Under the pieces are notes generated by a model that did not search any database, was not told the origin of the DNA, and saw only the letters and a program-made list of their open reading frames with translations. A stretch of DNA of 64,000 nucleotides, from IMG/VR virus record IMGVR_UViG_3300050142_000050, positions 64,001 to 128,000 of that record; one strand, given 5' to 3'. Source of the DNA: a virus (taxonomy: Duplodnaviria > Caudoviricetes). Position numbers and translations under genes: made by a program. Below, piece by piece: positions 23,470 through 47,373 of this stretch (the first letter of the stretch is position 1; each line of letters begins with the position of its first letter).

Positions 23470-24110
23470 ATCCTTTCACAGGATCAGGGTCCAACCTGGT
23501 AGGAAATTTACAACCGATCTGTTTACAGATACTGGAAAAATCGGCGGGGGGTCGCGGGCGCGCGGGCGCGCTAAACCTTCAGAGCGCTTCGCGCTACGTT
23601 TCGCTTCCGCTAGGAAGCTTTCGTGAATGTTTTTTGTTTCTTCCAGTCTCCTGACTGGTTGAAATTCCATGAATTGAAAATTCAAACCATTTCTGGATTT
23701 CCAAGAAATCCAAATCCAAGTTTGGTATTTGATTTTCAGGATTTTTGAAAAATCCTGATTTTCACTTTGTATTCCGTGTGCGCGCACACGTGTCTAATAG
23801 ATTATACTTACGTAGTAAGTATTCTTTATTGAGATATATTAGTTATATATAACTAATATCTAGATATTACTTAAGTAATATCTAGTATTAAATATATACT
23901 AGTATATTAATACATATACAGAGTATATGTATATTAAAATATATATTTATATATATAAATAAATTAATAAACGCGTGGGCGGGCGCACGTGCGCAGGCGC
24001 GGGCACGCACACCCGGGCGCACACGCACGCGGTATTAATAAAACCCGCGCGCGAGCCCAGGGTTTTTATACCCGCACATCCGTGCAGGGTTTTATATAAC
24101 TCATCGTAAA
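23470..24110. other. AT-rich palindrome array flanked by GC-rich alternating purine/pyrimidine tracts; candidate replication origin
   Basis: Between divergent genes. Perfect palindromes at 23775-23790, 23836-23859, 23860-23885, 23894-23907, 23944-23961 and 23983-23994. Confidence 0.55.
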
Positions 24111-28333: not shown

Positions 28334-28373
28334 CTTCCTACGTGGTGTGGACATATGTCCACACCACTATTGA
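28334..28373 (+). repeat. Intergenic hairpin repeat, copy 1
   Basis: CTTCCTACGTGGTGTGG-ACATATGT-CCACACCACTATTGA. Confidence 0.9.
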
Positions 28374-28733: not shown

Positions 28734-28772
28734 CTTCCTACGTGGTGTGGGACTTACCCACACCACTATTGA
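28734..28772 (+). repeat. Intergenic hairpin repeat, copy 2
   Basis: CTTCCTACGTGGTGTGG-GACTTAC-CCACACCACTATTGA, 400 bp after copy 1. Confidence 0.9.
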
Positions 28773-36129: not shown

Positions 36130-37629
36130 GTGATCAATCATCATTGGCTTTTCGAGAAGACCACTGAACCCAAGCGCATCTTCGTGCTCCATTCGGGCGG
36201 ACTCGACTCGACCTACATGGTCACCAAGCTCATCGCCGCCGGGCACTTCGTGACAACCGGATATGTCGTGATCGAGAACAACTACACGAAGGTCGAGCGC
36301 GAGAGGAAAGCCATCTCGCATCTGACTACCTTGTTTTACAAATATGCCGAAGAGCACCGCCCGAAGAACGTATTCCACACCGAGTGCGACCTTCTCACAT
36401 ATCGGGTGAAGGGAGAGTGGAATAAAGCACTCGGCTACAAACAGCTACCAGGATTCCTTCTCGGACTACTGGCATCGGTGGATACCCAGCGGTTCGACAT
36501 CGTCGCTATGGGCTATGCACTGGGTGATCAGATGATCTCACACATCAGTGACATCGAGTCGATCTGGAGCGCTTTCGAAGGGGTATGCGTCAGCCCGCTT
36601 CCCAAGCTCGAGTTCCCTCTGAAGACCTTCGCCAAAGCGCATATGGTCGACAACCTCCCGGATGAAGTGTTGGCTCGCATCACGTGGTGTGAATCCGAAG
36701 GTCAGTATGACTTCTGTGGAGTATGCGGCGCATGCGAACGAGCTAAAGCTGACCGCGTGTATATACCGATTAGGCGTCTACGTGATGAGGTCGCCGACGA
36801 GCCCGAAGTAGCCTCCGCTGAGAATGTTAAACTGGAGGCGGCCACCAAATCGGAGATCGATGACAGAAAGGAGTCCGAAGTCACCACTGCCCGTGACGAA
36901 GAATCCGAAATATGGTCCGTATTGGAGCCCGATCTCGATGAAGATCCCCGCCCAGTCGACTCCGAAGATCGTACACTCCTTGATGATCAGGATGACGTGA
37001 TTGTAAGAGAAGAATCACCTCCGGTCGTCGAGGGCGACATTATCATCGAAGAGCGAACTGGGTTCGAAAAATGGTGTACCAACGTCCTCGAACGACGTCT
37101 ACCCGAACCCTCAGATATCGCTGCATCGAAATCTCGTATCAGACTACAAGACGTACGGTCGGTGCGTCAGCATATTACCGAGACTCTTTCTTCACGCTGT
37201 TATACTAAGACGACGGACGAGCTCGTCGGACATTTCTTCGGTATACTACAAAGTGAAGATTTCGTGGTGGATGCCCCAGTTATCGTACAGGCAGACGATT
37301 TCTATTACACCTATAAGTCATTGAATGCGTTCATTGGCTCCCTCTTACAGGGAGATAAGGAAGTCCTCCATATCAAGTTGACAGAATCTGGATATTCGTG
37401 TCTGCATTTCGATTTCGACACGAAAGAAAAGCTCTTTGAGTTCCTCGAAGCCACCACCATCGATCGAGATTCCGTGTTTGTTAAACTCTCCAGTAGGTAT
37501 GGTTGGGGGTCTTCCTATAGGAATCTCAACGAGTTTCTTGCAGCCCATTCGGTAGAGAAGGGTAAGGAATTCCCCATCGCCAGCATTACCTCCGAGTCGG
37601 AAGGTCAGGTGAACCATGAAAGTCGGTGA
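36130..37629 (+). CDS. QueC-like PP-loop ATPase fused to an acidic linker and an unknown C-terminal domain
   Basis: HSGGLDST PP-loop; TWCES...CGVCGAC zinc motif at about aa 190-205. Confidence 0.75.
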   Translation: MINHHWLFEKTTEPKRIFVLHSGGLDSTYMVTKLIAAGHFVTTGYVVIENNYTKVERERKAISHLTTLFYKYAEEHRPKNVFHTECDLLTYRVKGEWNKALGYKQLPGFLLGLLASVDTQRFDIVAMGYALGDQMISHISDIESIWSAFEGVCVSPLPKLEFPLKTFAKAHMVDNLPDEVLARITWCESEGQYDFCGVCGACERAKADRVYIPIRRLRDEVADEPEVASAENVKLEAATKSEIDDRKESEVTTARDEESEIWSVLEPDLDEDPRPVDSEDRTLLDDQDDVIVREESPPVVEGDIIIEERTGFEKWCTNVLERRLPEPSDIAASKSRIRLQDVRSVRQHITETLSSRCYTKTTDELVGHFFGILQSEDFVVDAPVIVQADDFYYTYKSLNAFIGSLLQGDKEVLHIKLTESGYSCLHFDFDTKEKLFEFLEATTIDRDSVFVKLSSRYGWGSSYRNLNEFLAAHSVEKGKEFPIASITSESEGQVNHESR

Positions 37630-38272
37630 TGATAACATCCGCGCACAGGACGTCGGACTGATTGTTTCCCACCTTAGAGAACACTACGAGGGTTGGGTGT
37701 GGTCTATCGGTATATCCGATGAGGGTATCGAGGTGATGATTGCACCTGATGAAACTACACCCAGTGCGGTGGCCAGAATCTTTGCTCGTCATAAAGACGG
37801 ACAAGATGAATTCCGTCACCTATTCCAGCACCGAGCTGTGAACCACACCACTCTGGGTATGTTTGGACTTAATGTGCAGAACGCACTAGAGTCTTTTCTC
37901 GATAACACAAATTTGGTGTATTCTGACATCATCCCTCTGGAGCCAAATGGTCCAGATGGAGACTTTCTGTACGCCAAAATTATAGATGAGCATCAAATTC
38001 CGATGACCGTGGAACGCGCTCTGGCCAATATCCAAATCATCCAGGAGACTACCGAAGGTCTTGAGATCGAAAGACTCTACTTCGGTCAATGCTATCGCTC
38101 ATGCGATGCGTCCATCTACTGGAAGCATCCTGAGTTCGGTGAGGGAGGTTTTGACTGTGATATCAGATCACTCTCAGTATCGGGACCCCTCAAGGAGGTA
38201 ACGACCCTCCTTACTCTTGCATCACGGTGTCCTGAGGTTTTCGAGACGAACAGCTATTCTCATAAAAAATGA
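37616..38272 (+). CDS. Hypothetical protein
   Basis: Overlaps the previous stop; 218 aa. Confidence 0.7.
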   Translation: MKVGDDNIRAQDVGLIVSHLREHYEGWVWSIGISDEGIEVMIAPDETTPSAVARIFARHKDGQDEFRHLFQHRAVNHTTLGMFGLNVQNALESFLDNTNLVYSDIIPLEPNGPDGDFLYAKIIDEHQIPMTVERALANIQIIQETTEGLEIERLYFGQCYRSCDASIYWKHPEFGEGGFDCDIRSLSVSGPLKEVTTLLTLASRCPEVFETNSYSHKK

Positions 38273-38277
38273 AATCC

Positions 38278-38292
38278 CATATCACTCTTATG
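38278..38292 (+). promoter_or_regulatory. Putative early promoter for the RNA locus
   Basis: CATATCAC-TCTT-ATG, with no downstream protein gene. Confidence 0.6.
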
Positions 38293-38344
38293 AATAAATC
38301 GGGATGTCCGACATTGAAAAAATGTTAGTCTGAACGAACCTTAT

Positions 38345-38820
38345 TCTGTTGGAAGAGAGTCATCGATCATACCCCCTCTCTCAGAGCCGACCCCACCTCG
38401 GCGATCGGTGATTTCTCTTCCAACCTATTTGACAACCATGGACCATCCCTCCCGAAGGTCAGACCCGTCCCTCGAGGTCCATGGTTGTCAAATGGATATT
38501 CCAGTTTCACAAAGCAGTGCGGTAACGCACTCGCCCTTTTGTGGTCGCAGTCAGGACAACGATCCTGACTAGAGGGTAACCAGAGGTCGTGAGCTCCACT
38601 CGACTACTTGACATGTACACGACCCCCATGTCAGGTGGAAGAATCTTAACGACCTCTGGTTATTCTATACGAGATTCGCACGACGGCTGATGTAACCACC
38701 GGCGGTTGGGCGAAAGCTCGGTACTCGAATGATTCCTCCTGCATGTCGGCTTAGGACACTGCATGTGGGGGTTGTTCCCTCTTCCTCCTTGGAGGGTAGA
38801 GTCGATCGAGTACCGAGTAC
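38345..38820 (+). ncRNA. Candidate structured ncRNA(s): tandem long hairpins with C-rich loops
   Basis: Stems 38348-38358/38414-38424, 38428-38444/38476-38492 (17 bp perfect), 38577-38590/38649-38662 and 38717-38728/38806-38817. No ORF. Confidence 0.6.
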
Positions 38821-38828
38821 TTATTACT

Positions 38829-38904
<76 letters not shown>

Positions 38905-38909
38905 CAGAT

Positions 38910-39322
38910 TCGGTCTGAGGAGACGCGCCTCTCATCGAGTAGTCGCTGTATATGACACTACTCGCAACAGTGATCAGCAGCTGTAGAAGTCACACCCTCA
39001 CGGTGGTCGAATCTTAGACGTGAGATTCGATAAGAGCTTCAGCTACAACCCCATGGAAACCAGTAGGGCCGCTACTGCGGTGATCGTGTCGGTACGGTAA
39101 CGATGATATAAGTCGCGTCTCTTGTCGCCAGTGCGTAATGTCGCTCTGGCGGAGTCGTGCATCATACGACCCTCCGATAATCTGGATTTCCATGGGGATC
39201 CTATTCCCTACCATTTGATGGATAGACGTAGGGGTGTACCTTATTAACCATCTAGGTCTTCCTGCTCACCGGGGTGATACCGAAAATAAGTCGATCGGTT
39301 TATCCGGTCGATTAGGGTGAGC
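38910..39322 (+). ncRNA. Candidate multi-branched structured ncRNA
   Basis: CCCCATGGAAA/TTTCCATGGGG closing stem enclosing several hairpins, plus TCGAATCT/AGATTCGA, CGAGTAGT/ACTACTCG and CTCACC/GGTGAG stems. Confidence 0.5.
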
Positions 39323-39351
39323 CATTTTTGAGTCTAGTGCAGGAGAAGGTT

Positions 39352-39729
39352 ATGGCCGATATCAAACTGACAGACTCCGCAGAAGCTAAACGCGAGCTGC
39401 GAAACAAGAAAACCTATGAGCTCTTCAAGAAGCTGGTCAATATGTCAGCTTCACAGATCGAGAAATTCCTCGAGACTGATGAGAGTAAGAAGGTAGGCTT
39501 CAAGAAGGAAGGTAGTGATGAGTCAGTAGGACATCAGTCTGGACGACGTATCATCAAGATCCTACGTACACCTAAGTCACAGCTCGATGAGAGTGACTAT
39601 GCCCACATGCGTAAGGTATGTGCATACATCACACGCCATCTGGCTCAAGGTGGTCCTGAGACAAAAAAGGAAACGAGCCGCTGGCGCTATTCCTTGATGA
39701 ACTGGGGACATGATCCCCTCAGGAAATAA
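39352..39729 (+). CDS. DUF3140-family protein
   Basis: VNMSAS.IEKFLETDESKKVG...ESVGHQSGRRII.IL...DYAHMRKV..YITRHLAQ...WRYSLMNWGHDP. Confidence 0.85.
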   Translation: MADIKLTDSAEAKRELRNKKTYELFKKLVNMSASQIEKFLETDESKKVGFKKEGSDESVGHQSGRRIIKILRTPKSQLDESDYAHMRKVCAYITRHLAQGGPETKKETSRWRYSLMNWGHDPLRK

Positions 39730-39737
39730 ACGAATAT

Positions 39738-39825
39738 GGAGGGTACTGAGGTTGGCTCCTCACACGGATTTGAAACCCGTAGGTGCGTTAATTCGCGGAT
39801 GGTTCGATGCCATTGCCCTCCGCCA
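39738..39825 (+). tRNA. tRNA-Ser(UGA), atypical
   Basis: 88 nt; GGAGGGT/GCCCTCC acceptor, G discriminator + CCA, TTTGAAA anticodon loop, long variable arm, GGTTCGATGCC T-arm. Lacks U8/A14. Confidence 0.8.
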
Positions 39826-39950
39826 CAGATAAGGATCTCGTGCTCTCCTTTTCCGTCCTTCATGTGCCTCTACGGAGGCCGTCGGGCGATGTACTTCGGC
39901 ATTACGATGCCGATGGCTTAGAGCGCTATAACGGGATTCTTTAGGGTGAC

Positions 39951-39974
39951 GGGTGAGGGCTTACGCCCTCACCC
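39951..39974 (+). terminator. Terminator closing the RNA locus
   Basis: GGGTGAGGGC-TTAC-GCCCTCACCC, then CCTTATTTTTTT. Confidence 0.85.
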
Positions 39975-40039
39975 TGATCTCCTTATTTTTTTTTATCATA
40001 TGGTGCACTCGCACCTGACAATATCGGAAGGGTATCGAC

Positions 40040-40294
40040 ATGGCTTCTTCTCCCGAAATCGATCAGCTTCAGATGCAAGTACAAGTACTCTCAGATCAAG
40101 TGAGTACCCTCGCACAACGTCTGAGCGGACTCGAAGCTGGAGCTGCGGCGGCTGACATCTCGCGCGGTGCGACCGATCAGTACATCGTCAATCGTATGAA
40201 CAATGACGATGCAGCTGACGCATCGACCTTCGCCGTGATGAGCAGCAAGATTGCTCATCTGGAAGCACGTCTCGCCGGCGCCGGTATCGCATAA
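40040..40294 (+). CDS. Small coiled-coil protein
   Basis: AAGGG RBS; heptad pattern. Confidence 0.7.
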   Translation: MASSPEIDQLQMQVQVLSDQVSTLAQRLSGLEAGAAAADISRGATDQYIVNRMNNDDAADASTFAVMSSKIAHLEARLAGAGIA

Positions 40295-40302
40295 TAACAA
40301 GT

Positions 40303-40328
40303 GGAGGTGGGGTAAAATCCCCACCTCC
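40303..40328 (+). terminator. Terminator hairpin
   Basis: GGAGGTGGGG-TAAAAT-CCCCACCTCC, then CCTTATTTTTTTTT. Confidence 0.8.
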
Positions 40329-40418
40329 TATCACCTTATTTTTTTTTGTATTGATTGATCTCAAAAGTTCAATCTTATGGTTCAATCCTGGACTAACTTC
40401 ATCAAAAAGTTTTCACAT

Positions 40419-40637
40419 ATGGCAATCCAGCTAGGTAGGCGATATCGCCAACGGGGGGCACCCGGCTTCGTCACAGTCAAAGCTACCCTGAATCGACATG
40501 ATCAGGACTACAAGGAAGGGTTCCGGTTCCTCGGATCGAATGGTCGTACCTATCGTGAAGATGGTACCTACAGCTCCACGCGTGGAGCTATTTCAGATCA
40601 CGACCTCATCGAGTGGGTCGATCGTCCTACTGAGTAA
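40419..40637 (+). CDS. Small hypothetical protein
   Basis: ATG 40419; GRTYREDGTY...HDLIEW phage-type motif. Confidence 0.6.
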   Translation: MAIQLGRRYRQRGAPGFVTVKATLNRHDQDYKEGFRFLGSNGRTYREDGTYSSTRGAISDHDLIEWVDRPTE

Positions 40638-40655
40638 CTCGATACTTTTACAAAA

Positions 40656-40686
40656 TGACAGAGGGGGCGATGAGCCCCCTCTGTCA
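40656..40686. terminator. Terminator hairpin between convergent genes
   Basis: TGACAGAGGGGGC-GATGA-GCCCCCTCTGTCA. Confidence 0.8.
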
Positions 40687-40692
40687 GTGTAG

Positions 40693-43600
40693 TTATCCGT
40701 TGAAGAAGATATCGACGAGCTTTGCTTTTCCGACCTCCATGTTCCTCTCTGCGATACCTAGGAGAGGACTCTTCACGATACGGTTGATGATCGAGGTGAG
40801 TGAGAACAGAGCACCCACAGGTACACCCGATTCCGTATAGTGCGATTCTTCGGAAACGTGTGAGATGATTGCCTTATTGGCATTACCGAAACAGAGCTTA
40901 TCTCCAGCTTCAGCCGTGAGAGTCTCTTGGATCATGTATTCCAACAAAACAGTATCCTCAGTGAACTCGATACCCTTGTAATAGGTACCAGGTGCCACAT
41001 ATCCAGGACGCTCAGAGATCTTCGAACCTGGGATAGCAGAGAGAGCAGCGTTCTGTTGACGCTCTTCTTTCTCATATACCTTCAGGATCGATTTGAGGCT
41101 GTCTGAGAGCTCATTTCGGTCACAGGCGTAAAGTATGCGCAGCTTACTTACAGTGCCTGTATAGCCCGCTGTAGGCGTCTGACGACTAAGCTTAGCCATC
41201 AGGTCCAACTTAGACTGCGTCTGGTAGAGTTCAGTCTGCACCATGACGTCATCGCTGATCACACATAGAGGAGTGGTCGTATCGACATGATCACCAGGTT
41301 TGACAGTCGATATGAGGATGGCATTCTTCTGAGTGACCACTGGACACTGGTGAGCAGGCGTCATATTCAGACGATTAGCCATAGCGCGAGTGATCTCGCA
41401 GGCGTCTTCGTGATTACTCCCTTTTTCACACAGAGCCACCGTTTCGATGATACCATGCTTGAACGTCACTTGCTTGGACATCGGATCGGGTACGAAGAAC
41501 CCATCGTTGTAGATGAGGATATCTCCTTCCTTGATCTTCTCTCCCACATGGACATTGACCTTCCTTGTTTGGAGGAGGAATGCCCCTGAGATCTGCGAGT
41601 AAGCATCCTTGTAGGAATAAGACTTCACTTCACCAGGAGTAGTGGTACCGATCAGTTCCAGACGGATGTAGTAGAGACAGCTCTCGCTACCATCTGAGAG
41701 AGCTTTCACCAACTGACTCTGCTTACGCACCAAATCACGATCAGGGATACCATCCACCGAATCACATCGTAGACGAGATACCACCTTACCATAGGTGGAA
41801 TTCGTCAGAGCGAAGATACCGTTGGCTGGATAAGAACCCAGTGACCGCTCGGTGACCAAGATACCGACGAAGTTGTGATCCTTGCGATACTTGTCGATGA
41901 TGGGGTCGGAATAAGGAAGAGTCAGCTTCCGCAAAGGATCGATAGGCTTATCAGCATATCGGACCCGCAGTACCTTAGCTTTCTCATCGATAGACTCGAC
42001 TACGCCATCTGCTTCAGCAGCGATAGCGAATGTGTCACTGACCAGATGAGGAAGAACCGCATCATACCCAGTACGCACAGAAGCTGTCTCACCATCTCCA
42101 TGGTTAGGTACATAGTGAGAGATCTGGATGCTCAGGTAGGAAGCACGCTTACCATCGTCCGTGGTACCACCAGGCATCACGTTAGTACCGATGGCGAGCA
42201 TCTGAGGAGCTTCTAGCTCATCACCCTCCTTATACGCCTTAGGGATACCGTGGACGTTGTCGATGTTAGGAGATGCCGACAGATAGGAGGTGATACCTAC
42301 CTTACCAGAGTCAGGTACAGCATCAGAGACGATACCTAAACCATCCTTGGGGTAGATACGAGACTCCTGTGTGATAGCATCCGCAGATCGACCGCCACGA
42401 CCCGTGAAGGTGTAGTTAGCAGACTGTTTCACTTCATGGATTGGATTGATCGTGTCGTTGATCGCCACAGTAGCATCCTGGACGATCTTCTGGAAGACAT
42501 CTTCAGGATTGATCGAGAATGACTTCTTACCATTGGTACGACGCCACCTGGAGAATTCCTTGAAGATAGACTCATAGACGATCCCATTCCACCGTTCAAA
42601 CTTACGGAAGCGGTGGTTAGCGATAGACGCCGTATCGATCGCGTAATAGTCGGTGACCATCATGTTTGCACGGAGTAAGAGAGCTGACCACACGGTCGGC
42701 TCGCTCATATCCCGCAGGACGGTCTCGGTGATGGGATCAACAAAGAAATCGACGAATTGTGTAACCGTCTGGATAGTCCCAGGCTTCATCTTCTTGGACA
42801 CCAGTACCTTTGTGTAAGGAGCTGGGAAGTTCAAGTCCTTGAAGTTGATATCCTTGAGATCAGCCCAAGTCAAACCGGCTGCGATCAAAGACCGCTGGAG
42901 GGGATATCGGTTAAAGACCAAGAAACCATCAGCGAAGCGGATCGAGATATCATCGATCCCGATCACGGGTCGGTTACCACTCGAATAGAAACGATACTGG
43001 AGATTGATCTTCTTGAACAGATTCTCCAGACCCATCTCATATCCCAAGGTGAATACCAGAGGGATCTTCTCACCCGGGAAACTGACGAGCGTGTATTCAT
43101 TAACCTGCTTTTGGAGACCAGCCTCACTACCCAGTACATCGACCAAGAGTTGGTTGAAGGACTTCCAATGAGAAAGCTCCTCACCCTTGTGCGATACTTT
43201 ACGAATGGAGTTCTTAAAGTCCCAGAACAGGAGCTCCATATCACTCGTGATACCGACAAAGATACCAAACTTCGATGACAGAGATGTCGCCACCTTTTGG
43301 ATAGCCGACATCCGATCAGTGATAGGTGCACCATCCTGACCGAAGTAGAAGGTCATACCTCCCACAGTGATCTCAGTGAAGCCCTTACTGATCGCTGAAT
43401 AGTCATAGGGGAGAGGCTTTACGGGATCTTCAGCCTTACCCACCTGAGCAGTGAGCATACCTTCTGCGCGCAGTTTCAGGATATGAGCGATGATCACGTG
43501 TTCGAAACTATTACGCTTCGATTCCACACGTGATACGAGCACCTTCCCGAAGTGCGAAGAGAGGGATACTTCACTATCACTGATCTTACAGATCGGAAGA

Positions 43601-45565: not shown

Positions 45566-47373
45566 CCTGATGTTCAGCAGTGCTCGTTAGACACTACCCG
45601 TCCTTTCTTCCTTAGGAAAAGAGGACTGCTTACACTCTCGTGTAAGAGCAGACTATATCTTCACCCTCTCGTTGGAGTAGGGTGCTCCCCATTTCGGGAT
45701 CACTCGATCCCTACACCGTGGCAGGTGGTTAGTCGTTGAGCACATCGCATGACCTATAGAGGCTTTAGCGACTTCGCTGCGGATTTTCTCTATCTCTGTA
45801 ATTTTTACCATCTCGATGTGATTAGCATCGCCCCTCACTATCTAGTTTCCTAGGTGGGTTGGTATACAGAGCCTAACGAGACGTTCCCGCAATTAGAGGA
45901 GATTCACTTTACCATCTCTGATAAAGAGGACATCGCTTATTGCATAAAACACGACTTTACTTCAATGACAGGAAACTTCTTTAGGTCCACATGCTGGATA
46001 TTCCAACTCCTCCAGCGCATGGTACCATCACTCGACTTAAGCATCCGGGACATTACCGCCGGATCACAACGCTTCTCTCGATCCTCATTACACCACTCCG
46101 TCACACTGGTGTAATATCTCACTACTCCATCGCCCCCTACGATATTCAGAGGACGATCCGTCGCCTTAGTCCGATCGAAGATATCTAAGACCTCCTCAGG
46201 ATATACAGGCCACTTCACGAGCTCGCCTTCTTCTGCGAGGCGGAAACCCATACCCTTCCAAGGTATGACTGTCTCATACATCAACAGACGATCGAGCACA
46301 TAGTGACGCATCCCATACTTCACCGCTACCTCAGAGCGATTCCCCATGGCGAGCACTCGATGGGTCTTGAGATCCATCACCACGATTGACTTATCGGCCT
46401 TATCGCCGATACGACTCGGATTACGAGACAACTCCTCCCAACTGCGCGGATCATCAGCCTTCTTAAAGATATACCCATGGAAAGGCTTCCCATCAGTAGT
46501 CCTCCGCTCCACCGCCTGGTGAGCACTTTGAGGAGACACACCGAGGAGCCTCGCCATCTCATGGTATCCACCCACCACGAACTCCTGCCCATCACTCAGC
46601 CTCCTGAGGAGTATCTTCTTCTGAGTCTCACCCCGCACACCATCAGTGAAGGCATGCATGTTGTTATCAGAGTAAGTAGCCCACTCGAGATTTCGGATGG
46701 TGTTATTGAGCTTATTGGAGTCCTTATGGTTGACCGTAAGATGTTCAGTGTCCAGAGGATGATCCAAGAAGGTGAGAGCCAACAGTCGATGGAGACGTTG
46801 TTGCTTACCATCGATTTTAACAGTAGTCTCCATATATCCGTTTCTCGGAGAGACACCGACGGGATACTTGTCGACGTACCGTCGCAACTCAGGACCACGT
46901 TCTACAATCCTTATTTCCAAGGACACCCCAGGTACCTTGAACCACACTCCCAGTGGGATGTGTTCTCCTATCCTCTCACGGACTCTATACTGACGATAAT
47001 CCCATTCGAGATTTTCTATCCGGAGATCATCACGATTCCCATTTCGGAAAGACACCGACAACCACTCAGGATCCTTGTCGGTCGGCTTATACGTTATCAG
47101 CATCAGCCTATCGAGCGGGTGCGAAGAAGGCTTGTGACTTTTACCACGGATCTTAACTGCACGTCGACAGTGTCGACTGATGTATTCTTTCTGAACCTCT
47201 CCGGTAGATATCAGCGTGACGACTGCATCTTCGGAGATGTCATATAGAGGATTTGTTGGAATTCTCATAATTCACCTAGTTGTTATTTCACCATATAATA
47301 CTAGGTAAAATTTTCACACCTTTTTACAAGGGTATTTTCCTGTCAATTATCGTGTTCTATGCACTAAGGTCAA
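45566..47373 (-). mobile_element. Group I intron (about 1808 nt) with an HNH ORF
   Basis: Minus-strand core: P AATTGCGGGAA (45884-45894), Q AATCCGCAGC (45776-45785), R GCTCAACGACTA (45730-45741), S AAGATATAGTCT (45650-45661). 5' exon ends in U; intron ends in G. Confidence 0.92.
45937..47268 (-). CDS. Intron-encoded HNH homing endonuclease
   Basis: LHRLLALTFL...VNHKDSNKLNNTIRNLEWATYSDN motif, a degenerate upstream copy, and C-terminal NUMOD-like segments. Confidence 0.92.
   Translation of the reverse strand: MRIPTNPLYDISEDAVVTLISTGEVQKEYISRHCRRAVKIRGKSHKPSSHPLDRLMLITYKPTDKDPEWLSVSFRNGNRDDLRIENLEWDYRQYRVRERIGEHIPLGVWFKVPGVSLEIRIVERGPELRRYVDKYPVGVSPRNGYMETTVKIDGKQQRLHRLLALTFLDHPLDTEHLTVNHKDSNKLNNTIRNLEWATYSDNNMHAFTDGVRGETQKKILLRRLSDGQEFVVGGYHEMARLLGVSPQSAHQAVERRTTDGKPFHGYIFKKADDPRSWEELSRNPSRIGDKADKSIVVMDLKTHRVLAMGNRSEVAVKYGMRHYVLDRLLMYETVIPWKGMGFRLAEEGELVKWPVYPEEVLDIFDRTKATDRPLNIVGGDGVVRYYTSVTEWCNEDREKRCDPAVMSRMLKSSDGTMRWRSWNIQHVDLKKFPVIEVKSCFMQ

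Follow-up and report, generated by a model that had tools for sequence, protein, structure and literature searches.

A chain of seven RNA hairpins with C-rich loops upstream of a tRNA gene in an uncultured jumbo phage: a probable early non-coding RNA

Introduction

The genome of a phage from leaf litter carries, within about 480 nt of its + strand (38346-38818 of the window, i.e., the whole 64,000-nt stretch of DNA that was analysed), a chain of seven contiguous RNA hairpins located between a copy of an early-promoter motif and a tRNA gene. The structural observation is confirmed and statistically strong, and the hairpin chain is probably a novel early phage non-coding RNA, an assignment that has a single sequence as its basis. 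That the chain is a functional RNA, both transcribed and structured, is judged likely, and its C-rich loops may target ribosome-binding sites, a hypothesis with modest statistical backing.

To our knowledge, hardly any work has been done on the non-coding RNAs of lytic jumbo phages. In the transcriptome of phage phiKZ, a single small RNA was predicted, and it could not be confirmed by Northern blot (PMC8244752).

The Phage and Its Probable Host

The window corresponds to bases 64001-128000 of the IMG/VR record IMGVR_UViG_3300050142_000050, which is 249.6 kb long and 89% complete, and near-identical DNA is found in ~20 leaf-litter metagenome runs; among the runs listed for the hairpin stretch, none is of RNA. 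The record encodes the subunits of a phiKZ-type split multisubunit RNA polymerase (RNAP), one of which contains a group I intron detected by the gathering-threshold Rfam scan of the window, and these two features together indicate a chimallivirus-like jumbo phage. The intron (45629-45968, - strand, Rfam 75.2 bits) lies between two RNAP subunit ORFs and is adjoined by an HNH endonuclease ORF (45937-47268). The closest cultured relatives reach only ~32% identity in the RNAP beta subunit, and the lineage is uncultured.

The host is probably an alphaproteobacterium. This is inferred from the DUF3140 protein encoded beside the hairpin chain, which among cellular sequences matches Sphingomonas and Methylobacterium best, and from the alpha-type permuted tmRNA of a related phage described below. 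The ribosome-binding sites of the phage are of the AAGGAG type (own consensus AAGGAG/GAGGG). The phage encodes neither an RNase III gene nor an evident RNA chaperone, no Ro60/TROVE domain or RtcB gene was found in it, and its 250-kb record has no match to the reverse transcriptase domain RVT_1.

Fold of the Hairpin Chain

The chain lies between the stop codon of a 218-aa gene (38272) and the start of the DUF3140 gene (39352), an interval that, the tRNA apart, contains no credible ORF. The longest ORF on either strand of 38273-38828 spans 54 aa, and gene callers run on three independent assemblies make no call in 38273-38762, which upholds the claim of the first-pass annotation that the stretch is devoid of ORFs.

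When 38278-38828 is folded as the + strand, the minimum free energy (MFE) is -237.6 kcal/mol, compared with -165.8 +/- 6.3 for dinucleotide shuffles (z -11.4), and none of the 100 shuffles is as good; the reverse strand has an MFE of -210.3 and a z of -5.6. The composition of the stretch, 51% G+C, is that of the genome. A scan of the 250-kb genome by 300-nt MFE with GC regression ranks the locus second on the + strand for structure. Rank one is held by an AT-rich palindrome array (23600-24000, 28-35% G+C), which comes out on top on both strands and fits a DNA-level element, e.g., an origin or a packaging site.

The seven hairpins, H1 to H7, range in size from 22 to 101 nt, are separated by linkers of 1-13 nt, and have z values from -3.3 to -6.6 when each is folded alone. 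At least four domains had been described at first; their independence is borne out, and the number was an undercount, as all seven hairpins are individually significant. H1, H2, H5 and H7 measure 67-101 nt and have closing helices of 12-21 bp, and two of them, H1 and H7, are branched. The elements of the fold are as follows:

38293-38345, + strand: A/U-rich 5' leader that folds into two small weak hairpins
38348-38425, + strand: H1, 21-bp stem with two G-U pairs and one bulge; at its top lie a C-rich loop and a small hairpin whose loop reads CCCCACC (z -6.5)
38427-38493, + strand: H2, 18-bp perfect stem formed by an 18-nt inverted repeat (100% complementary), the top of which carries AUCCCUCCC and GUCCCUC (z -5.4)
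38507-38544, + strand: H3, 15 pairs (z -3.9)
38549-38570, + strand: H4, 8-bp stem with a 6-nt loop (z -4.5)
38573-38666, + strand: H5, lower stem of ~21 bp, internal loops, upper stem of 12 bp and an 11-nt loop with ACGACCCCC (z -6.6; five G-U pairs)
38676-38713, + strand: H6, 14 pairs, interrupted (z -3.3)
38717-38817, + strand: H7, domain with a two-way branch, closed by a 12-bp stem and displaying UUCCUCCUU at one tip (z -5.5; seven G-U pairs)

The fold of the + strand holds 20 G-U pairs, against 10 in that of the - strand, and is 27 kcal/mol more stable. Per 300-nt window, this energy difference has a z of -0.2 to -1.7 relative to the genome as a whole, and because it is ordinary, it is chiefly the orientation of the promoter, the tRNAs, the protein gene and the terminator that assigns the RNA to the + strand.

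Promoter and Transcription Unit

The hairpin chain is flanked on the same strand by the following features:

38278-38292, + strand: copy of the early-promoter motif, CATATCAC-TCTT-ATG, with an AT-rich stretch before it; fits YATATYAC-N4-RTG
38829-38904, + strand: tRNA-Thr(UGU) with encoded CCA (ARAGORN; Rfam tRNA model, 69.6 bits)
38905-39330, + strand: second ORF-free structured segment (z -4.8; unpaired C 17% vs 23% in shuffles)
39352-39729, + strand: DUF3140 protein gene (Pfam PF11338, E 9e-36), the sole protein gene of the unit
39738-39825, + strand: tRNA-Ser(UGA)-like gene that has a long variable arm and scores 45.4 bits with the Rfam tRNA-Sec model (gathering score 47; found by ARAGORN at the relaxed threshold only)
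39951-39994, + strand: terminator-like element, read from the sequence, with a 10-bp G+C stem, ~10 nt, CCUUA and a U run

The pattern YATATYAC-N4-RTG occurs seven times in the window, where 0.3 sites are expected, and the whole genome has 20 sites (forward, 18; reverse, 2), compared with none for a reversed-pattern control; alignment of the contexts places most of the sites in intergenic regions, behind AT-rich DNA. The motif coincides with the published consensus of the early (virion polymerase) promoters, namely TATATTAC in phiKZ and TATATTAC-DWHD-GTG in 201phi2-1 (PMC7058600, Table 2). No sigma-70-type promoter was found in 37500-40800, where two TTGACA words are located in stems and have no -10 partner.

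The promoter copy at 38278 stands 55 nt ahead of H1, and the chain ends 10 nt upstream of tRNA-Thr, with no terminator-like site in between. The stretch had been described as downstream of an early-promoter motif and upstream of a phage tRNA, and both statements stand, the motif being statistically real and the tRNA lying on the same strand. From this context, we infer that the hairpin chain is transcribed early. In phiKZ, the tRNAs have early transcription start sites of their own (PMC8244752).

On the + strand, no terminator-like site was found in 38293-39950, and the lack of a terminator before ~39951-39994 defines a unit made of the promoter, the hairpin chain, tRNA-Thr, the structured segment, DUF3140 and tRNA-Ser. 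The terminator-like element has an unusual build, seen at 39951-39994 and again at 40303-40347 (+ strand), in which a G+C hairpin is followed after ~10 nt by CCUUA and then by nine U; the CCUUA-U9 tail of the second copy (40334-40347), behind a different G+C hairpin, is identical over 14 nt. A standard scan for + strand terminators misses both sites because the U run does not abut the stem.

Within the unit, tRNA-Thr is the only tRNA of the genome that ARAGORN finds at default thresholds. The score of the tRNA-Ser-like gene falls just under the gathering score of the tRNA-Sec model, and hence this gene may be a non-standard or decoy tRNA. The second structured segment has no Rfam match, and a search for a solved structure of DUF3140, or for a paper dedicated to it, returned none.

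Two further observations concern the early genes of the phage. At G000:C1:2791-3300 (L030:1501-2000), a tRNA-like element lies within ~25 nt downstream of a copy of the early promoter and directly precedes an 86-aa ORF, which has a strong ribosome-binding site and a terminator; such a tRNA-like mRNA leader is a hint of repeated use of tRNA-type processing marks by this phage. In addition, about ten + strand copies of an intergenic hairpin family are present, with the build TCYTAC, 10-12-bp stem, loop, stem and YRTTGA. The sequences of their upper stems differ while the pairing is kept, and these hairpins look like a phage-specific RNase III-type processing signal between early genes. Their positions are:

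28336-28373 and 28736-28772 of the window, + strand: TCYTAC-stem-YRTTGA hairpins
142470, 142734, 143247, 144059, 144510, 194776, 198363 and 204469 of genome G000, + strand: TCYTAC-stem-YRTTGA hairpins

The C-Rich Loops

The first-pass annotation held that the loops repeatedly expose C-rich tracts. All of these tracts are present, and most of them are unpaired: the ensemble probability of being unpaired is 0.81-1.00 for five of the six tracts examined in the loops, the exception being GUCCCUC, which is half paired (0.45). The values are 0.81 and 1.00 for the two tracts of H1 (38371-38382 and 38391-38397), 0.82 for AUCCCUCCC, the companion of GUCCCUC in H2, 0.89 for ACGACCCCC in the loop of H5, and 0.84 for UUCCUCCUU in the tip loop of H7. 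The last of these is a further tract, not listed at first; it is a 7-nt match to the anti-Shine-Dalgarno core, and its loop contains CCUCCUU, the anti-Shine-Dalgarno core of 16S rRNA.

The loops of the chain hold 10 words of the type CCYC or CYCC, compared with 3.6 +/- 1.9 in shuffles, of which 1 in 200 reaches 10. Likewise, C accounts for 36% of the unpaired positions, compared with 31% in shuffles, a value that 2 of 200 reach. The enrichment is modest (p ~0.005-0.01) and concerns a feature picked after seeing the data. It is specific to the hairpin chain: the loops of 38905-39330 lack it, and so do the spacers in a related phage. The anti-Shine-Dalgarno reading is weakened by the fact that any C-rich loop "matches" a G-rich ribosome-binding site.

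Known RNA Families and Rejected Identities

A cmscan of 38100-39500 against all 4227 families of Rfam 15, with E up to 10, returned the tRNA and chance-level matches only; GOLLD, ROOL, tmRNA, Y RNA, 6S and ribozymes are absent. The scan of the whole window at gathering thresholds returned the tRNA, the group I intron and nothing else. The Rfam check proposed in the earlier annotation has thus been run, and no known family, GOLLD and ROOL included, matches the hairpin chain.

Several more specific identities were considered and rejected. Membership in GOLLD or ROOL (RF01998, RF03087) is contradicted by covariance models that give no match even at E up to 10. An array of tRNA remnants or pseudogenes is not supported, for 38278-38828 has no match to the tRNA model at E up to 10, a relaxed ARAGORN run yields Thr and Ser alone, and the two short collinear matches to tRNA-Thr (11 and 16 nt) are at chance level, as 50 of 500 shuffles attain the same local alignment score. 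A tmRNA, standard or permuted, was an idea prompted by the permuted tmRNA of the relative; neither the tmRNA models nor ARAGORN give a match, and the alignment to the tmRNA of the relative scores no better than chance (20 of 200 shuffles). For a bacterial Y RNA of the YrlA type, the phage lacks a TROVE partner gene and Rfam gives no match, and for a retron ncRNA the 250-kb record contains no reverse transcriptase (RVT_1).

The cuckoo RNAs (CcsR/NfeR1/ar14) were also rejected as an identity. Their motif CCUCCUCCC is absent from 38278-38828 when at most one mismatch is allowed; with two mismatches, four copies appear, and the window-wide counts are at chance, with no enrichment. As for the build, two to four adjacent simple hairpins of 24-50 nt that lack multiloops would be expected, and the chain has seven, of 22-101 nt, with branches in H1 and H7. 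The CIN1 subgroup of these RNAs would call for a DUF1127 neighbour, and the only protein gene of the unit is DUF3140. Finally, the chain is not a member of the TCYTAC-stem-YRTTGA family of the phage itself, the motif of which is missing from the operon.

Relatives and Conservation

No homologue of the hairpin chain was found in phage records, in IMG/VR as searched through the neighbouring proteins, in metagenome contigs or in the tRNA islands of the nearest relatives. A nucleotide search of 50,697 phage records gave the tRNA as the sole match, the 20-mer of the H7 tip hairpin has no exact match in IMG/VR, and no paralogue of the chain exists elsewhere in the genome. A match of this 20-mer to a Gemmatimonadales MAG was dismissed as chance, being confined to 24 of the 25 nt of the palindrome. 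Covariance models built from the single sequences of H5 and H7 recover nothing but themselves from 217 kb of loci of the relatives and from the G000 and G001 genomes searched in full. Of the proteins encoded upstream, the 218-aa and QueC-like ones have no homologues beyond the phage itself in IMG/VR and in a set of 5.8 billion proteins. Four leaf-litter assemblies of the phage are identical over 38150-40050, with no variant.

Relatives were identified through the proteins instead. A search with the RNAP returned one relative in IMG/VR (48% identical) and six metagenome contigs (53-61%), and in none of the seven is the polymerase gene flanked by a tRNA, by DUF3140 or by any similar sequence. 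The DUF3140 search led to a related phage represented by four variants (L011-L014) that differ elsewhere only; its DUF3140 is 68% identical and the RNAP of L012 is 61% identical, with the order of DUF3140 followed by the polymerase common to L012 and the phage under study. Upstream of DUF3140, this relative has a gene-poor tRNA island of 4.4 kb (L011:637-5000), in which two weak tRNA-like genes accompany an 85-nt tRNA-Met, along with an HD_4-domain gene and ORF-free spacers with long stems. These spacers have closing stems of at least 20 bp and z values of about -6 to -7, and they have neither nucleotide similarity to the hairpin chain nor C-rich loops.

A second relative, with a genome of 308 kb (G001), has in its tRNA island a structured segment with a 16-bp closing stem, plus a permuted tmRNA. 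The latter is of the two-piece alpha type (L039:2506-2836, - strand, equivalent to G001:C1 ~302915-303245) and scores 73.5 bits with the Rfam model tmRNA_permuted and 59.3 bits with alpha_tmRNA; the phage under study has no tmRNA. A third source is a contig of 556 bp (L018), the DUF3140 gene of which is 85% identical and which is too short to reach the hairpin chain. It carries a tRNA with a long variable arm (390-556) after DUF3140, behind a different spacer of ~90 nt, and the linkage of DUF3140 and tRNA is therefore conserved. Taken together, these sequence comparisons indicate that what the clade shares is an architecture, namely long-stem RNA spacers in tRNA islands by DUF3140, and not a sequence family.

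Proposed Mechanism and Alternative Explanations

The reading that we favour regards the hairpin chain as the 5' non-coding module of an early RNA operon of ~1.7 kb driven by the phage RNAP, with an RNA that is freed by tRNA processing and possibly has anti-Shine-Dalgarno loops; taken as a whole, we hold this to be slightly less probable than an even chance. The virion RNA polymerase would transcribe the operon early from the promoter at 38278, in the order of promoter, hairpin chain, tRNA-Thr, second structured RNA, DUF3140 mRNA, tRNA-Ser and terminator, and the tRNAs would serve as processing marks in the polycistronic RNA. Cleavage by RNase P at the 5' end of tRNA-Thr (38829), 10 nt past H7, would free a compact RNA of ~530 nt, whose dense and tight helices would make it long-lived. 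The length of an RNase III substrate (about two helical turns) is reached by several of the stems (H1, 21 bp; H2, 18 perfect; H5, ~21; H7, 12+6), and the 18-21-bp helices and the A/U-rich linkers (38494-38506, 38667-38675 and 38818-38828) could act as sites for the RNase III and RNase E of the host, the cuts of which would yield small RNAs of a single hairpin. The CCCUC/CCUCC loops could then pair with G-rich sequences of the Shine-Dalgarno type (AAGGAG/GAGGG, as in the phage and in typical bacteria), so that the RNA would act in trans on translation, or else as a sponge. The anti-Shine-Dalgarno mode of action taken specifically is doubtful, and both the release by RNase III and the decoy action are offered as hypotheses.

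The reading as a structured RNA is favoured by the significance of the fold, its rank in the genome, the G-U pairs, the promoter statistics and the location of tRNA-Thr, DUF3140 and tRNA-Ser on the same strand. It is also favoured by the enrichment of C words in the loops, the AAGGAG-type ribosome-binding sites and the long-stem, ORF-free spacers of the related phages, along with the precedent of small RNAs that have multiple anti-Shine-Dalgarno loops, share a transcript with a small protein gene and are cut out by RNase E (PMC8034643, PMC4615179). It is weakened by the lack of a homologue, and with it of covariation, by the identity of the four assemblies, the ordinary strand preference, the modest and post hoc C enrichment, and the lack of an RNase III or chaperone of the phage.

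The chain might alternatively be a spacer that acts only in cis, in which case the hairpins would punctuate or protect the precursor, as entry sites for RNase III or RNase E or as 5' stabilisers, with no target in trans and with C-rich loops that are incidental. A structural role independent of sequence fits the long-stem spacers of the relatives, which are unrelated in sequence and have no C-rich loops; moreover, helices of 18-21 bp match the substrates of double-strand-specific nucleases, and the phage has a separate conserved family of hairpins between its early genes. However, seven hairpins over 480 nt far exceed what the processing of one tRNA needs, the standard intergenic hairpin motif of the phage is missing from this operon, and the C-rich loop bias is specific to the chain; we regard a purely cis-acting role as rather unlikely. 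The placement of the chain behind an early promoter, its several long and near-perfect helices, and the repetition of accessible tracts that are C-rich and G-poor would also suit a protein decoy or sponge, the stems or loops of which would titrate early in infection the host RNase III, a defence sensor that binds dsRNA or C-rich RNA, or Rho. The partner is hypothetical, no nearby phage gene for a matching binder is present except the uncharacterised DUF3140, and the decoy explanation is given a low probability.

The inverted repeats fold on both strands, with a z of -5.6 for the - strand and a strand asymmetry that is not extreme, and another array of palindromes in this genome is clearly of the DNA type, all of which would agree with a feature that operates at the level of DNA. 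Such a feature would consist of protein-binding palindromes or cruciforms that serve replication, recombination or packaging, or of the scars left by a decayed mobile element or tRNA array, and the RNA fold would be a by-product. Against this stand the excess of G-U pairs on the + strand (20 vs 10), a G+C content of 51% that equals that of the genome, the lack of repeat copies elsewhere in it, a similarity to tRNA-Thr that is at chance (50 of 500 shuffles), and the location of the stretch within a promoter-to-terminator unit; a DNA-level explanation is likewise given a low probability.

Returning to the structured RNA, its boldest version would make of it a new class of regulatory RNA, i.e., an early chain freed by tRNA processing whose CCCUC/CCUCC loops bind Shine-Dalgarno regions or a host factor that binds C-rich RNA. 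Within minutes of the start of infection, a phage of the nucleus-forming type would by such means reprogramme host translation or blunt a defence that senses RNA, and the chain would be a viral counterpart of the cuckoo RNAs. This version in full is considered quite unlikely. Because no cultured phage comes closer than ~32% RNAP identity to this uncultured lineage, the chain is to be taken as a lead for metatranscriptomics and synthetic tests and not as an established element. The fusion of a promoter-driven folded RNA to the only standard tRNA suggests that tRNA processing releases other RNAs as well, and functional C-rich loops would further suggest that regulators bearing several anti-Shine-Dalgarno heads can be carried by phages.

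Comparison with Known Systems

The RNase III processing hairpins of the T7 type are single sites between protein genes in the early transcript. The phage hairpins resemble them as irregular hairpins of ~20 bp in an early polycistronic transcript, which is here a predicted one, and differ from them in forming a chain and in lying outside the phage's own TCYTAC-stem-YRTTGA intergenic family. Species 1 and 2 of phage T4 (rnaC and rnaD) are small stable non-coding RNAs, the function of which is not known, that belong to the tRNA cluster; they are co-transcribed with the tRNAs, released by the tRNA-processing machinery, and are single molecules of ~120-140 nt. The chain would resemble them in its co-transcription with a tRNA and its release by tRNA processing; a relation in sequence is not expected, and here seven hairpins stand upstream of a lone tRNA. 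GOLLD and ROOL are, like the predicted RNA, large structured phage non-coding RNAs that adjoin a tRNA gene, but each of them adopts one large multi-branched fold, whereas the chain is a linear series of independent hairpins.

The cuckoo small RNAs of Alphaproteobacteria (CcsR1-4 and NfeR1; Rfam ar14 group) consist of tandem hairpins with anti-Shine-Dalgarno loops, are co-transcribed with a small RNA-binding DUF1127 protein, and are matured by RNase E (PMC8034643, PMC4615179); they comprise 2-4 adjacent simple hairpins of 24-50 nt, with no multiloops (PMC4615179). The phage chain resembles them in its adjacent hairpins, its C-rich loops similar to anti-Shine-Dalgarno sequences, the small protein gene of unknown-function type in the unit, and the likely host group, which is the same. 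It differs from them in that CCUCCUCCC, the loop motif that defines the cuckoo RNAs, is missing and the loop tracts of the chain differ from each other, and in that its hairpins measure 22-101 nt, with stems of up to 21 bp, against 24-50 nt for the cuckoo hairpins. Moreover, its neighbour is DUF3140 and not DUF1127, it has no Rfam match, and it is borne by a phage and joined to a tRNA. Judged by analogy, the cuckoo small RNAs may serve as the nearest working model for the hairpin chain, which by its design appears to be kin to the phage RNAs associated with tRNA operons, here in a multi-hairpin form with C-rich loops.
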